From positions 1 through 64,000 of IMG/VR virus record IMGVR_UViG_3300028025_006190: 64,000 bases of DNA, one strand, 5' to 3'. The DNA comes from a virus. How positions within the stretch are numbered: position 1 is the stretch's first letter; every line of letters begins with the position of its first letter. The notes under the pieces were generated by a model. The model was not told the DNA's origin, made no database searches, and worked only from the letters and a program-made list of their open reading frames with translations. Of the stretch, positions 58,777 through 63,306 are shown one piece after another. The position numbers and the translations under genes are program-made.

Positions 58777-58847
58777 GTCGCTCAAGTGTTACGGTAGCAC
58801 GACGGTCTCCAAAACCGTGAGACTAGGTTCAATTCCTAGGAGCGGCG
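58777..58847 (+). tRNA. tRNA-Trp (CCA)
   Basis: Acceptor gtcgctc/gagcggc; anticodon arm acggt-ctCCAaa-accgt; T arm ctagg-ttcaatt-cctag. Confidence 0.9.
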
Positions 58848-58891
58848 CAATTTGACTACATTGTTTCTAAATTTGTGCTAAAGTATTTATA

Positions 58892-59062
58892 ACGCAAGAT
58901 CGACGGATCAAGCGGAGTGATGGCTGAATGTGTCTTTCCAGTAAGGACCTAAAGCACACCTCGGGTTAGCGCCCTGCCTTAGCGGGTAAAAGAGGTGGTC
59001 GGGTGCGGTACATACTGTATTGCTGGGACCCCGTGGTGGTAAAACGCAATCCACCCACTCAA
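58892..59062 (+). ncRNA. Candidate structured ncRNA (~170 nt, family not recognised)
   Basis: Lies between an extended -10 (TGcTAAAGT, 58876-84) and a strong terminator. Several stems: gagtg/cactc, cacctc/gaggtg, gcggtaca/tgtattgc, ggtgg/ccacc, plus two hairpins with the same UUAGCG loop. Confidence 0.55.
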
Positions 59063-59065
59063 CTA

Positions 59066-59100
59066 AAAACCCCCGGGATCTTTTCCTCCGGGGGTTTTTT
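59066..59100 (+). terminator. Rho-independent terminator
   Basis: aaaacccccgg ... ccgggggtttttt. Confidence 0.85.
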
Positions 59101-59122
59101 ATGTGTGTTACTGTTTACAGAA

Positions 59123-59196
59123 CGGGATGTAGCTCAGCTTGGTAGAGCGCTGCGTTTGGGACGCAGAAGTCGCAGGTTCAAATCCTGTCGTCCCGA
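59123..59196 (+). tRNA. tRNA-Pro (TGG)
   Basis: Acceptor cgggatg/cgtcccg; ctgcg-ttTGGga-cgcag; GGTTCAAATCC. Confidence 0.95.
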
Positions 59197-59197
59197 C

Positions 59198-59273
59198 GGC
59201 GGTGTAGCCCAATGGCAGAGGCACACGGTTTAGGTCCGTGCCAGTGTGAGTTCGAATCTCATCACCGCTACCA
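59198..59273 (+). tRNA. tRNA-Leu (TAG), short variable arm, encoded CCA
   Basis: ggcggtg/caccgct-a-cca; cacgg-ttTAGgt-ccgtg; GTTCGAATC. Confidence 0.92.
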
Positions 59274-59462: not shown

Positions 59463-59670
59463 TCCGGTACGCCAACCATCTCATTACTTTCACCCAAGTG
59501 GTATTGAAGTTATTGAGATCACAAAACACGAGTCTTTCCTCCGGGGGAACATCATCAAATACATTCTCCGTGCCCCATTTAAGGGCAGAGAGTTAGAAGA
59601 TTTACGTAAAGCTCAGATGTATCTTGAGTGGGAAATTGCCAGAGTTGAAAAGGAAATAGAAGACAAGTGA
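59452..59670 (+). CDS. DUF3310-family protein (T7 gp1.7-like putative nucleotide kinase domain)
   Basis: DPVxxPSHY...IEVIEI...FxxGNxIKYxxRAxxKG..EDLRKAxxYL. Confidence 0.85.
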   Translation: MTNDPVRQPSHYFHPSGIEVIEITKHESFLRGNIIKYILRAPFKGRELEDLRKAQMYLEWEIARVEKEIEDK

Positions 59671-60365
59671 TTTTTACCAGTGAACTAGAAGTAGAGCTTG
59701 TTCAATACTCCGGAAGCGATAAAATAATTGCAGATGCTGCTCGAGTATCTACTGGCGCTGTGGCCGATGCATACACTGAAGAAGAGAATGCCAAACTACT
59801 TGGGTATCTTGTAAAGAATCGCCACGGCTCACCCTTTGAGCACAACTCGATGACCTTCAAGATCTCTGCTCCTATATTTGTATTCCGTGAGTTCCAACGT
59901 CACCGTATTGGCTGGTCCTATAACGAGGTCTCTGCGCGATACAAAGAGATGGATCCGGTTTTCTATGCGTACCCACCAACGAGGCCTCTAGTCCAGGAAG
60001 GATCCTCTGCCCATCCGAAGCTTGTTGACGGGCACCCGTCTATGACTACGATGGTAAATCACGAAATGATGACTGCATACTCTCACTCCTGGGGGATCTA
60101 CAAAGCTCTTCTGCGTGAGGGTGCTGCTAACGAAGTTGCTCGATCTGTGCTCCCTGTTGGTCTCTACAGTCAGATGTATGCGACATGCAATGCTCGAAGC
60201 TTGATGGCATTCCTGTCATTACGAGTTGATGCTGAGAACGCCCAGTTTGAGACCAAGCCCCAGTGGGAGATCGAACAGGTCGCTCGCAAGATGGAAGAGT
60301 ACTTTTCTCTAATGTTCCCGGACACACACTACTTTTTTAACAAGAATGGTAGAATTGCTCCATAG
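59667..60365 (+). CDS. thyX: Flavin-dependent thymidylate synthase
   Basis: AARVS, HGSPFEH, RHRIGWSYNEVSARY (RHRx7S), EVARSVLP, NARSL and QWEI motifs. Confidence 0.96.
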   Translation: MIFTSELEVELVQYSGSDKIIADAARVSTGAVADAYTEEENAKLLGYLVKNRHGSPFEHNSMTFKISAPIFVFREFQRHRIGWSYNEVSARYKEMDPVFYAYPPTRPLVQEGSSAHPKLVDGHPSMTTMVNHEMMTAYSHSWGIYKALLREGAANEVARSVLPVGLYSQMYATCNARSLMAFLSLRVDAENAQFETKPQWEIEQVARKMEEYFSLMFPDTHYFFNKNGRIAP

Positions 60366-60430: not shown

Positions 60431-60503
60431 GCCTCCTTAGCTCAGTTGGTAGAGCGCGATACTTGTAATATCGATGTCATCGGTTCGATTCCGGTAGGGG
60501 GCC
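60431..60503 (+). tRNA. tRNA-Thr (TGT)
   Basis: gcctcct/agggggc; cgata-ctTGTaa-tatcg; GGTTCGATTCC. Confidence 0.95.
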
Positions 60504-60507
60504 CAGA

Positions 60508-60579
60508 CCCCTCGTAGCTCAGCGGAAGAGCGTATGGTTTCTACCCATCCGGCCGGGAGTTCGAATCTCTCCGAGGGGA
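60508..60579 (+). tRNA. tRNA-Arg (TCT)
   Basis: cccctcg/cgagggg; atgg-ttTCTac-ccat; GTTCGAATC. Confidence 0.9.
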
Positions 60580-60582
60580 CAC

Positions 60583-60656
60583 CGGGAGTTAGCTCAGCCG
60601 GTTAGAGCAGCGGACTCATAATCCGTCGGTCGCGGGTTCAAGTCCCGCACTCCTGA
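60583..60656 (+). tRNA. tRNA with CAT anticodon (Ile2 or elongator Met)
   Basis: cgggagt/actcctg; gcgga-ctCATaa-tccgt; GGTTCAAGTCC. It lacks the initiator GGG/CCC anticodon stem. Confidence 0.9.
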
Positions 60657-60663
60657 CAACACA

Positions 60664-60889: not shown

Positions 60890-60983
60890 GCCAAGGCGCA
60901 GCTCCCCTGCTGCCCGGCATTGTGAATTTCGCTACCTCACAAAAGCTAAGCCCCCTCTTGAAAATATATTGGAGGGGGTTTAG
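60890..60983 (+). ncRNA. Candidate ~95-nt small RNA with a C-rich loop
   Basis: TAGAAT at 60877-82, then three consecutive hairpins: gcc-ggcgcag[ctccc]ctgc-gcc-ggc; ttgtga/tcacaa; ctaagccccctc/gagggggtttag. No ORF. Confidence 0.4.
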
Positions 60984-61140
60984 TGTTACTAAATCTATAT
61001 GAGAAGTTGGCAGTATATAATAACAATTTTTATAATAGCTCGCAAGATTTTACGAGGTGCTACACTAGATAAAACCCAATAAATATCAGCAAAATGGCCA
61101 AGTTTCCTTGGTCAATTTTCATCTCACCTGGAGGTCATAT

Positions 61141-61224
61141 ATGAACGAAAAAATAACAACCCTTGGCGAATACCAGGTCCCAATCGACCCGATGGATGAG
61201 TTCCAGTGCGAGGGGTGCCAATAG
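61141..61224 (+). CDS. 27-aa micropeptide MNEKITTLGEYQVPIDPMDEFQCEGCQ resembling the redox-active C-terminal tail of a class I RNR alpha subunit
   Basis: GGAGG RBS 6 nt before the ATG; extended -10 TGcTACACT at ~61058; terminal acidic-CxxCQ-stop; upstream of nrdB. Confidence 0.75.
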   Translation: MNEKITTLGEYQVPIDPMDEFQCEGCQ

Positions 61225-61228
61225 GCAC

Positions 61229-61288
61229 GACCCCGAAACGGGTCCGGCCCGGTGCTCCTCGATCGTTGCTAGAGTCGAGCGCCGGGCC
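61229..61288 (+). promoter_or_regulatory. Two GC-rich hairpins after the micropeptide gene (mRNA stabiliser or attenuator)
   Basis: gaccc/gggtc and a 12-bp ggcccggtgctc/gagcgccgggcc stem; no U tail. Confidence 0.5.
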
Positions 61289-61311
61289 AACTAATCTTAT
61301 AAAATGACTAT

Positions 61312-62262
61312 ATGACAGGCGTAACTCCGGAGACCTTAGTTCTTACTTCTGAAGGTTATCGGGAGATTTTATCACTAACTGGTTCTCCATTTTTAGTGTG
61401 GAATGGCGGGGAATACACTCCAGCAGTTGCGCAAAAACTAGCTGAACAACAAAAAGTTATTCGGATAGAGCTTGTTTCTGGTACTGAAATTGAGTGTGCA
61501 GCAGACTTTGAATTTCGGATCCAACGTGACTACTACGTCACTGCAGTGCATAACCAGGAAGCGAGATACCTGGCTCCCGGTGATCGACTCATCAAGGGTT
61601 GGTATCCAGTAGTTCCGGGTGGGGCTGAAGAGTTTCCCTACTCATATACACACGGCTACTACTCCGGAGCTGAGAAGTTTCGACTGGGAGACAAAGTTCT
61701 TGCAAGATCTGCAGTCTACGGAGTTAGGCGGCAGTCTCTACAACTTCTACAACTAAATACAGAACTAGATCAAAAAAGAAGTCTTAAGTTTTTAGACAGT
61801 ATGCCTGAAGACTATGAAATCCCCCTCGATTTTAGATACTCACTCGAGACAAAGCTGGAGTGGCTAGCTGGACTTTTTGATTCTGGTCTTATCAAAAGAA
61901 AAGTGGGAATCAGGCCGATCTGGGATATTTACTCAGAAAATTATGACTTCCTAAAAAGACTGAAACTATTCAGTCATACGCTTGGCGGAGACGCTCGAGT
62001 AATAAAAAATAGTGATCTTGGAAGAGCTCACTACACTTTTCGTTTGGCCAATACGTGGGTGCAGAACCTAAGAAAAATGAATATCCCCGTAGTTAACCAC
62101 TCGTTCCCCGAGATCAACTACACCAGAAGAAGCATTGATTATCCGAAGATAGCTCAAGTAATTGATGACTACAGATACTCAGACATATACAACATCACAC
62201 AAGAAAACAAAGACACGGTTGTCCTCAACGGCATCCTTGTTCCAAACAACTCAGAAAGGTAA
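61312..62262 (+). CDS. Free-standing, degenerate intein (Hint plus LAGLIDADG-like) without exteins
   Basis: Block A-like GVTPETLVLTSEGYREI...VWNG; block B-like IECAADFEF; L.PGD.L; WLAGLFDSG; block F/G-like DIYNITQ...VLNGILVPN. Confidence 0.75.
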   Translation: MTGVTPETLVLTSEGYREILSLTGSPFLVWNGGEYTPAVAQKLAEQQKVIRIELVSGTEIECAADFEFRIQRDYYVTAVHNQEARYLAPGDRLIKGWYPVVPGGAEEFPYSYTHGYYSGAEKFRLGDKVLARSAVYGVRRQSLQLLQLNTELDQKRSLKFLDSMPEDYEIPLDFRYSLETKLEWLAGLFDSGLIKRKVGIRPIWDIYSENYDFLKRLKLFSHTLGGDARVIKNSDLGRAHYTFRLANTWVQNLRKMNIPVVNHSFPEINYTRRSIDYPKIAQVIDDYRYSDIYNITQENKDTVVLNGILVPNNSER

Positions 62263-62266
62263 CACC

Positions 62267-63256
62267 ATGGGAATCCTCGGAAAAGGAATCCAGGAGGGCC
62301 TCCTCCTCAAGCCAGTCAAATACCAGTGGGCAATGGATCTGTACGACCAGGCCGTAGCGAACACGTGGTTCCCTAACGAAATTCAGCTCGGAGAAGATAT
62401 TGCCGACTTCAAGAAGATGTCTGAGGAAGAGCAGCACGCCATCACATTCTTGATGTCGTTCTTTAACCCCTCGGAGCTGATTGTAAACAAGGCTCTTGCC
62501 TTTGGCGTGTACCCATATCTGAACGCACCCGAGTGCCACCTGTACCTCGCGAAGCAGATGTGGGAAGAAGCAAACCACTGCATGTCGTTCGAGTACGTTC
62601 TCGAAACCTTCCCCGTTGATCGCGCAGAAATCTACAACCAACACGTCTCGGTTCCCAGCATCAAAGCCAAGGAAGACTTTGAGGTCAAGTTCATCACGCG
62701 CATGACCGAAGAGACTCTTGACATTGAGACCGTAGAAGGCAAGCAGGACTTCGTCCGTAACCTTGTCGCTTACTCGGTCATCATGGAGGGCATCTGGTTC
62801 TACTCGGGCTTCATGGTGGCGCTCAGCTTCCGCCAGCGCAACCTGCTGCGTAACTTTGGTTCGCTCGTTGACTGGATTGTTCGTGACGAGAGTCTGCACC
62901 TCAAGTTTGGTGTCAACCTTGTTGTGACCATCCTGGACGAGAACCCCGACATCGTGACTGAAGAATTTGCTGCTGAGATCAAGCAAATGATTTTGGACGC
63001 TGTCGACATGGAGACGGCGTACAACAAGGATCAGTTCCCCAATGGAATCCTCGGTCTAAATGCTGACTACGCTACGCAGTACACCAAGTACCTTGCAGAC
63101 CGTCGTCTTGAGGAGCTCGGCTTTGGCCCGCACTACAACGTGACAAACCCCGCAAAGTGGATGGCAGCAGCCAACGATACTTTGCAGTTGGTCAACTTCT
63201 TTGAATCAACAAACACTTCTTACGAAGTTAACGCTACATCATCTAGCAAGCACTAG
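62267..63256 (+). CDS. nrdB: Ribonucleotide reductase beta subunit with class Ic-type signature
   Basis: WFPNEI, EEANH, MEGIWFYSGF, RDESLH and NFFE...Y motifs; GAAAGG RBS before ATG 62267. Confidence 0.95.
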   Translation: MGILGKGIQEGLLLKPVKYQWAMDLYDQAVANTWFPNEIQLGEDIADFKKMSEEEQHAITFLMSFFNPSELIVNKALAFGVYPYLNAPECHLYLAKQMWEEANHCMSFEYVLETFPVDRAEIYNQHVSVPSIKAKEDFEVKFITRMTEETLDIETVEGKQDFVRNLVAYSVIMEGIWFYSGFMVALSFRQRNLLRNFGSLVDWIVRDESLHLKFGVNLVVTILDENPDIVTEEFAAEIKQMILDAVDMETAYNKDQFPNGILGLNADYATQYTKYLADRRLEELGFGPHYNVTNPAKWMAAANDTLQLVNFFESTNTSYEVNATSSSKH

Positions 63257-63264
63257 GAGCAGTT

Positions 63265-63306
63265 ATGTGTTGCTGCACAGAATGCAAGTGCGGTCTTAAA
63301 GACTAG
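63265..63306 (+). CDS. 13-aa Cys-rich micropeptide MCCCTECKCGLKD
   Basis: AGGAG RBS overlaps the nrdB stop; the ORF ends just before the terminator. Confidence 0.45.
   Translation: MCCCTECKCGLKD

Follow-up and report, generated by a model that had tools for sequence, protein, structure and literature searches.

Class I ribonucleotide reductases (RNRs) acquire a disulfide in the active site of the alpha subunit at each turnover; this disulfide is reduced by a cysteine pair in the C-terminal tail of the subunit (C754/C759 in Escherichia coli), and the pair is then re-reduced by thioredoxin or glutaredoxin. In yeast Rnr1 the tail of one protomer can regenerate the neighboring protomer, which provides a precedent for action in trans. 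A C-terminal CXXC motif is present in most class I RNRs (bioRxiv 10.1101/2022.04.23.489257). The NrdJa/NrdJb enzyme of Pseudomonas aeruginosa, whose catalytic and thiol-disulfide exchange polypeptides are encoded by adjacent genes of one operon, has been described as the sole known example of a split RNR outside viruses (PMC4520616); NrdJb has 229 residues and folded IscU-like and zinc-finger domains (bioRxiv 10.1101/2022.04.23.489257). In Facklamia ignava a glutaredoxin is fused to NrdB (PMC6187632). Here we analyze a 64,000-nucleotide stretch of viral DNA (the window; positions 1 to 64,000 of the 76,977-base pair [bp] IMG/VR record IMGVR_UViG_3300028025_006190), in which a micro open reading frame (ORF) at 61141-61224 encodes a 27-residue peptide that ends in a cysteine pair. 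We consider it probable that this peptide belongs to a family of free, 20- to 35-residue peptides that represent the detached Cys-pair tail of a class Ic-like NrdA, and that the phage copy supplies a host NrdA lacking its own tail.

Like the tail of an ordinary class I alpha subunit, the peptide is an acidic, flexible sequence with a CxxC near its C-terminus, and it presumably carries electrons to the active-site disulfide. It differs from such a tail in being a separate product with its own start and ribosome-binding site (RBS) next to an alpha chain that has no Cys tail, in having a second chromosomal copy preceded by NrdR boxes, and in being carried alone by phages. The likeness to NrdJa/NrdJb lies in the division of catalysis and thiol-disulfide exchange between two polypeptides; however, that enzyme is of class II and depends on B12, whereas here we deal with a class I enzyme with a class Ic-like beta subunit, from which just the unstructured tail has been detached, duplicated and taken up by phages. 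Where NrdJb-type proteins have about 229 residues and folded Cys-rich domains, the members of this family have 20 to 35 residues and two cysteines only. The Facklamia ignava fusion is likewise a gene-level rearrangement of the RNR electron-delivery chain, linked to nrdB, but it adds a full redoxin domain that reduces a normal alpha tail, whereas here the tail itself is detached and has no thioredoxin fold: at 27 residues it is far from the fold of about 75 to 110 residues with an active-site CxxC that defines such redoxins, and Pfam, PHROG and NCBIfam models gave no match to it. Phage auxiliary genes for nucleotide metabolism (RNR, thioredoxin, NrdH/glutaredoxin and ThyX) are also phage-borne and presumably boost the supply of deoxynucleoside triphosphates (dNTPs), and the window has ThyX and nrdB as well; the difference is that here the gene encodes no enzyme or redoxin but a peptide of about 25 residues that would complete a host enzyme. 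The chemistry is presumably that of the canonical tail; the genetic architecture and the carriage by phages are new. The preliminary description of this DNA knew of no characterized RNR built in this way, and our literature search, outside which most subscription journals lay, likewise returned no paper describing this peptide family or a class I tail encoded apart from its alpha subunit.

A link to NrdA is seen in Saccharibacteria, where three of the four loci matched (L136, L209 and L217) encode a full-length NrdA that runs in frame into the peptide motif, making the peptide homologous to the tail of a bona fide NrdA. The NrdA proteins of L136 (854 residues) and L209 (891 residues) both terminate in DPMDxLLCE(S/G)CQ-stop; they are laid out as an ATP-cone, the barrel, a ...TTYYLH(M/V)KP..AEQST..VNK segment, a linker and then the tail, with nrdB adjoining. 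Their identity to Microbacteriaceae NrdA is 59-62%. The Microbacteriaceae NrdA itself ends in ...TTYYLHMKPRHTAEQSTVKVNK...PARRGFGGLAPKAGE-stop soon after VNK, and has no cysteine there. The partner is an NF005101/TIGR02506-type NrdA with nrdB downstream, which places it outside the class II B12-dependent enzymes.

In Microbacteriaceae chromosomes the micro-ORF stands between nrdA and nrdB as a separate cistron, just as it is separate from any alpha polypeptide in the window. In 15 loci its start codon shares bases with the nrdA stop as TGATG and in seven as ATGA; elsewhere it begins 2-9 nucleotides past that stop. Its Shine-Dalgarno sequence is located within the final nrdA codons, and all three relative frames of the two genes are seen, including in-frame arrangements with a stop between. 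The variable frame and the placement of the Shine-Dalgarno sequence inside nrdA indicate a translationally coupled separate cistron rather than a frameshift product. Programmed frameshifting or readthrough onto NrdA was considered and rejected (own ATG, gaps of -4 to +9 nucleotides, three frames), and the long open frames ahead of some GC-rich copies (L129 and L199 among them), examined as candidate fusions, proved to be off-frame overlaps with nrdA. The preliminary description had proposed a search for micro-ORFs of this type beside nrdA or nrdB in Microbacteriaceae and their phages, and a test of whether the cognate NrdA lacks terminal cysteines; both checks bore it out, the ORFs between the two genes ending in DPMDxxxCxxCQ-stop.

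The tail-less NrdA proteins (L146, L155, L229 and others) end in a conserved R(R/K)GFG(F)GG after an Ala/Pro/Ser-rich linker, and at the matching place the Saccharibacteria proteins (L136 and L209) have KKGFAAL or KIGFAAIF ahead of a longer linker; the end motif may be a docking or hinge element. Longer free-standing forms of the peptide, of 46-59 residues and retaining part of the linker, occur in two viral contigs (L052 and L096) and in a Saccharibacteria metagenome-assembled genome (MAG; L139), where the form is located between nrdB and a 539-residue nrdA fragment that the start of the locus truncates; they hint that the linker was split independently at several positions, or that the MAG contains a frameshift from assembly. 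Together with matches in Nanopelagicales and Cellulomonadaceae, these forms point to more than a single cut point.

Co-occurrence across genomes gives the same picture. In a sample of 201 genomes drawn evenly from the Microbacteriaceae, 93 contain the motif and 93 contain an NF005101-type NrdA (both in 92 genomes, neither in 107), and the tail-less NrdA and the micro-ORF thus coincide in 199 of the 201; of the two exceptions, one genome has an NrdA interrupted by internal stops and lacks the motif, and the other has the motif but no NrdA. The sampled genomes are related, and this is therefore a strong association rather than independent replication. Three complete genomes have one PF02867 gene apiece, namely the tail-less NrdA. 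In each of four genomes there are exactly two copies of the micro-ORF, one beside nrdA and one elsewhere (a reversed control pattern gave no match in the same four). It is fairly likely that a three-component class I RNR (tail-less alpha, class Ic-like beta and a peptide of 20-35 residues), present in about half of the 201 genomes, is the sole class I/II RNR detected in the three complete ones, and that phages make use of the split by carrying the peptide gene alone without NrdR control. The earlier proposal of a split RNR with the tail as a diffusible third component is supported, as far as comparative genomics can speak, by the fused Saccharibacteria tail, the tail-less NrdA, the gene order, this co-occurrence and the NrdR boxes ahead of the second host copy.

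The second host copy is monocistronic, with a GGAGG-type RBS and a terminator hairpin 3' of it, and is located upstream of genes for MaoC-type dehydratases and murB. The NrdR regulon is marked by two 16-bp boxes in the promoter (conserved positions C4, A6, A8, T9, T11 and G13), 15-16 bp apart (PMC13584703). About 100-190 nucleotides 5' of the DPMD motif, the free-standing host copy has the sequence ACAC(T/A)ACATGTAGTGG, which matches all six conserved positions and is followed by a weaker second box, and host nrdA in the same genomes is preceded by canonical NrdR box pairs 32-33 nucleotides apart; both host genes thus have the hallmarks of the regulon. An NrdR-box match within 250 nucleotides upstream was found for 55 of 107 cellular copies versus two of 104 viral copies, the latter being at about the level of chance, and none was found in the window between 60700 and 61140. 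The free-standing host copies (L124-L243) also have an additional conserved inverted repeat, GAATGACA-n5-TGTCATTC, between the two NrdR-type boxes.

The family is large and is under selection as a peptide. Scanning IMG/VR with a degenerate DNA pattern for DPMDxxxCxxCQ-stop returned at least 119 viral contigs, and the same pattern minus the stop codon returned at least 120 bacterial contigs, mostly from Microbacteriaceae (Leifsonia, Clavibacter, Cryobacterium, Salinibacterium and Pontimonas among them); a stop follows CQ directly in 117 of the 120 bacterial matches listed, even though the stop was outside the pattern. The motif thus recurs in at least 239 independent contigs, far more often than chance would give. 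Nearly all viral matches are ORFs of 20-35 residues, with the consensus M...(G)GY-x-VP-x-DPMD-x-LQC(D/E)SCQ, and both cysteines and the terminal Gln are invariant across 131 aligned members. A profile built from these 131, searched against 1.84 billion proteins, matched 463 cluster representatives (E ≤ 1e-3), the best 150 of which are all short, at 24-157 residues (the Saccharibacteria fusions came through the DNA pattern scan). Across 228 distinct 57-nucleotide segments, codon entropy is 1.67 bits at the third position versus 0.87 at the first and 0.73 at the second. Residues outside the search pattern are conserved through differing codons: Pro(-2) in 224 of the 228 copies with all four codons in use, Leu in 211 with six codons in use, and Ser in 206 via AGY and TCN codons alike. 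Conserved residues with varying synonymous codons indicate that selection acts on the peptide. Shine-Dalgarno-like sites (AGGA/GGAG/GAGG type) are located close to the start in 113 of 215 members with called starts.

Public annotation of the family is misleading. The Leifsonia and Microbacteriaceae MAG peptides of 27 and 25 residues (P0001 and P0002) appear in public records as 'ribonucleotide-diphosphate reductase subunit beta', which is also the NCBI name of the 27-residue Leifsonia peptide, and one record reads 'uncharacterized membrane-anchored protein'; these names are mislabels that hide the family. Among cultured phages, tblastn located unannotated micro-ORFs of 22-30 residues that share this ending in three phages of Microbacteriaceae hosts, namely the Clavibacter phages CMP1 and CN1A and the Pontimonas phage phiPsal1; in all three the ORF is placed just past the lysis genes. 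Pseudanabaena phage Pan2 (L259:3486-3566) has an unannotated 26-residue relative, MDDFDTIDGFACPNDPADLVSCESCQ, in which DPAD replaces DPMD; the annotated coding sequence Pan2_27, tried as the Pan2 member of the family, overlaps it and reads in a different frame. The DPAD form shows that the family extends past the strict pattern, and perhaps past actinobacterial phages.

The features of the window copy are listed in Table 1. It reads from an ATG through 27 codons to a TAG stop and its peptide has the terminus VPIDPMDEFQCEGCQ, that is, QCEGCQ-stop, with a Cys pair of CXXC spacing (as opposed to CX4C) in the last few residues. An alternative in-frame TTG start at 61108 would give 38 residues; the homologues favor the ATG at 61141. 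The preliminary description had read this ORF as a free-standing redox tail, equipped with a GGAGG RBS and a stable 3' hairpin and heading the nrdB locus. The RBS, the hairpin and the place ahead of nrdB are confirmed: the RBS is placed 6 nucleotides from the ATG, the two hairpins 3' of the gene fold with a free energy of -37.7 kcal/mol (z = -4.07; one of 200 shuffled sequences folded equally well), and nrdB follows downstream with an intein-like ORF between. The putative extended -10 that it had named is present near 61058, and a better sigma-70-like site is located some way upstream of it. The 3' hairpins are not a canonical intrinsic terminator, because a U-tract 3' of them is absent, and the small leader hairpin ahead of the RBS could be an attenuator. 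Upstream of the micro-ORF are ThyX (59667-60365), genes for tRNA-Thr, tRNA-Arg and tRNA-Met (60431-60657) and terminator-like hairpins, and the micro-ORF thus does not form the 3' part of a large neighboring gene; together with the promoter-like site, these features also rule out a remnant of an nrdA directly upstream. The further claim that the ORF is not debris of a decayed nrdA agrees with its intact reading frame, its membership of a large family and the selection on the peptide evident from codon usage.

Table 1. Features of the micro-ORF and nrdB region of the window (all on the plus strand)
Feature	Position	Strand	Basis or remark
Sigma-70-like promoter candidate, TTGGCA-18-TATAAT	61007..61036	+	Consensus scan, 11/12 matches; pattern match only
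Extended -10-like element, TGCTACACT	61058..61068	+	Seen in the sequence; weaker than the 61007-61036 site
Small leader hairpin followed by a T-run	61095..61124	+	Terminator-like match, between promoter-like site and micro-ORF RBS
Shine-Dalgarno sequence, GGAGG	61130..61134	+	6 nucleotides 5' of the ATG; read from the sequence
Micro-ORF, probable 27-residue detached RNR alpha C-terminal redox tail, ends ...EYQVPIDPMDEFQCEGCQ-stop	61141..61224	+	Family membership, selection, homology to fused NrdA tail
Two GC-rich hairpins between micro-ORF and downstream genes	61229..61288	+	Folding energy; counterpart in L075
Free-standing intein-like ORF, 316 residues	61312..62262	+	Weak PF14890 and TIGR01445 matches; between hairpin and nrdB start
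nrdB, class Ic-like RNR beta	62267..63256	+	PF00268, E 7e-76

The beta subunit encoded downstream is close to that of the presumed hosts. The window NrdB has 80-84% identity to chromosomal Microbacteriaceae NrdB, a level suggestive of gene transfer between phages and their hosts, and 91% identity to the viral NrdB of L075. Its best match of solved structure is 1SYY, the class Ic beta of Chlamydia trachomatis (7.8e-77), the alignment placing window EEANHCMSF on EEAVHTHTF and FFNPSE on FFSTAE. The window protein thus agrees with 1SYY in having Phe at the radical-Tyr position and Glu as the first metal ligand, both hallmarks of class Ic beta subunits. The 316-residue ORF ahead of nrdB, whose 3' end contains the nrdB RBS, has 36% identity over 312 residues (4-315; E 7e-55) to the intein that interrupts the NrdA of viral contig L060 at the catalytic NLC|TE site (...SSNL|C...Q|CTEI). 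It has Gly in place of Cys1 and Asn in place of the +1 Cys, it is free-standing rather than inside a host protein, and it contains a LAGLIDADG-like motif, WLAGLFDSGL; with those two substitutions it cannot splice as a canonical intein. It is absent from L075/G041, relative to which it has been inserted after the hairpin and ahead of the nrdB start. It may be all that is left of an nrdA since lost, or a free-standing endonuclease gene that derives from an intein.

A related phage, G041, is a 116.7-kilobase (kb) record with direct terminal repeats that includes contig L075; it aligns collinearly with the window, the nucleotide identity being 65-84%. In G041/L075 the micro-ORF, a hairpin at the same place and nrdB are retained, with 72 nucleotides between the two genes. 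The preliminary description had left the source of the alpha subunit between phage and host. Pfam and protein searches found no nrdA in G041, nor was any found in the window's own record, and the alpha served is thus most likely that of the host. As far as the data go, this phage lineage most likely supplies the tail and the beta subunit, and no alpha. In L060, the micro-ORF is followed after 88 nucleotides by a tail-less nrdA (with ATP-cone and intein) and then by nrdB; this NrdA terminates in ...TTYYLHTKPRHTAEQSTVKVNK...PRKGFGFKSAN-stop, with no cysteine. Among viral records with the micro-ORF, nrdA is found in one of 49 and nrdB in three of 50 (the window record added). Most phage carriers are without an RNR gene; the peptide gene thus does not depend on an RNR locus in the phage. 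The gene upstream is that for TerL (the large terminase) in about 30 of 90 viral loci, and downstream it is portal in 29 of 78, some of the TerL-portal carriers being complete phages that have terminal repeats and a size of about 16 kb; in about nine viral loci the micro-ORF follows holin, and in two a glutaredoxin gene lies just 3' of it. Clavibacter and Pontimonas are among the known hosts of the cultured carriers, and the micro-ORF is itself present in bacterial genomes of these two genera (in Clavibacter beside the tail-less nrdA). A blastn search of cultured phages with 60900-63300 as the query gave no matches.

Elsewhere in this part of the window, clusters of tRNA genes flank thyX on both sides, with tRNA-Trp, tRNA-Pro and tRNA-Leu at 58777-59273 before it and the Thr, Arg and Met genes after it. 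A match to the manA RNA motif (58897-59065) falls among the tRNA genes, with 48.6 bits versus an Rfam gathering score of 55.2 (E 1.8e-10).

These observations are consistent with the following mechanism. In roughly half of the sampled Microbacteriaceae, gene fission would have cut the Cys tail off a class I (class Ic-like) NrdA, leaving a host NrdA that stops after the RRGFGG-type motif and a peptide whose cistron would be translated in coupling with the nrdA stop. Once a turnover is complete, the peptide, with its CxxC in the reduced state, would enter the NrdA active site and reduce the disulfide, docking by way of the conserved Y-x-V-P-x-D-P-M-D segment, and the oxidized peptide would be re-reduced by thioredoxin or by a redoxin of the NrdH/glutaredoxin type. 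During infection the phage peptide, joined in the window phage by nrdB, would add the shuttle and a radical subunit for the tail-less host NrdA, raising dNTP supply outside host control by deoxyadenosine triphosphate (dATP) and NrdR.

Structure prediction was applied to the cognate pair. The predicted complex of an 835-residue NrdA with its own 32-residue peptide scored 0.52, as compared with 0.00 for the best of three controls, at least 50% of contacts agreeing between runs and the partner having a predicted local distance difference test (pLDDT) value of 51-54. Of the solved complexes 58 of 80 attained the pass mark used, as did two of 110 mismatched pairs, counts that apply here only roughly because alignments of our own were used; a score of 0.60 or lower while still passing was seen for just seven of the 80 solved complexes and for both of the passing mismatches. 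The modeling that the preliminary description had suggested thus gives weak support for binding.

Several of our results weigh against a tail that acts on host NrdA. Positions among the late genes (beside TerL or portal, or after holin) are unexpected for nucleotide metabolism. Neither nrdA nor nrdB was found in any of the 21 carrier records that are at least 90% complete (0/21), and the phage role therefore rests wholly on the presumed interaction with host NrdA; hosts are known for a minority of the viral contigs. The window's own record is estimated by CheckV to be 45% complete, and a phage nrdA may thus lie outside it. The co-occurrence is confined to one bacterial family, with phylogenetically non-independent genomes, and the weakness of the predicted complex also counts on this side.

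Some of the same results would be expected if the phage peptide were a decoy or inhibitor, which blocks the host NrdA active site or drains thioredoxin or NrdH such that dNTP synthesis is shut down or the redox state altered: RNR genes are absent from most carriers, the gene is often placed among late genes, and the viral copies have no NrdR boxes, so that their expression is uncoupled from host needs. A trap, however, would be expected to lose one Cys, whereas P-x-DPMD, the two cysteines and the terminal Gln are invariant in viral and cellular copies alike, and so is the pattern of selection shared by them. Moreover, the peptide comes together with a host-like nrdB in the window phage and in G041, and with both RNR subunit genes in L060; such pairing with RNR subunits in three phage lineages fits activation, not inhibition, and phages generally profit from more dNTPs. 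We thus regard a decoy as unlikely. Slightly less likely still is a job unrelated to RNR acquired through co-option, such as a factor in terminase/portal morphogenesis or packaging, or a metal-binding half-site. The frequency of TerL and portal neighbors, which extends to the complete phages of about 16 kb, is what such a role would predict, but the contexts vary (terL-portal, after holin, before nrdA, before nrdB and before glutaredoxin) as is usual for accessory genes that function by themselves, and not for components of a structural module. The viral peptides also have high identity to the host nrd-operon peptide across the whole conserved core, and the genomes of Clavibacter and Pontimonas, hosts of cultured carriers, carry the micro-ORF.

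For the window copy in particular, one might suppose a non-functional passenger, captured together with a host nrdB or left by a decayed nrdA locus; the adjoining intein-like ORF, which is homologous to an NrdA intein and has lost its Cys1 and +1 nucleophile, and the lack of an nrdA in the record would both agree with this. We find it highly improbable, given that the ORF is intact with its GGAGG and a promoter-like site and keeps all invariant residues of the family, that the module of micro-ORF, hairpin and nrdB is kept in G041/L075 at just 65-84% nucleotide identity, and that more than 100 other phage contigs retain the gene under purifying selection. All three of these alternatives fit less well than does a phage copy that acts as a working shuttle for the NrdA of the host and whose expression escapes NrdR.

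The re-reduction tail of class I RNRs is disordered, rarely visible in structures and hard to manipulate, and a natural tail in the form of a free peptide offers direct access to it, with synthetic peptides, Cys variants, titration and cross-linking as the means. The family also corrects database labels, such as the NCBI 'subunit beta' name for a 27-residue peptide, and suggests that some alpha subunits regarded as tail-less may simply have an unannotated partner. If the functional shuttle proposed here is correct, then an essential enzyme gains an overlooked third gene in a family that holds the plant pathogens Clavibacter and Leifsonia xyli. In the phages, the peptide gene would be far smaller than known auxiliary metabolic genes, and a micro-ORF under gene-calling cut-offs would be a widespread metabolic accessory gene, kept even in genomes of 16 kb.

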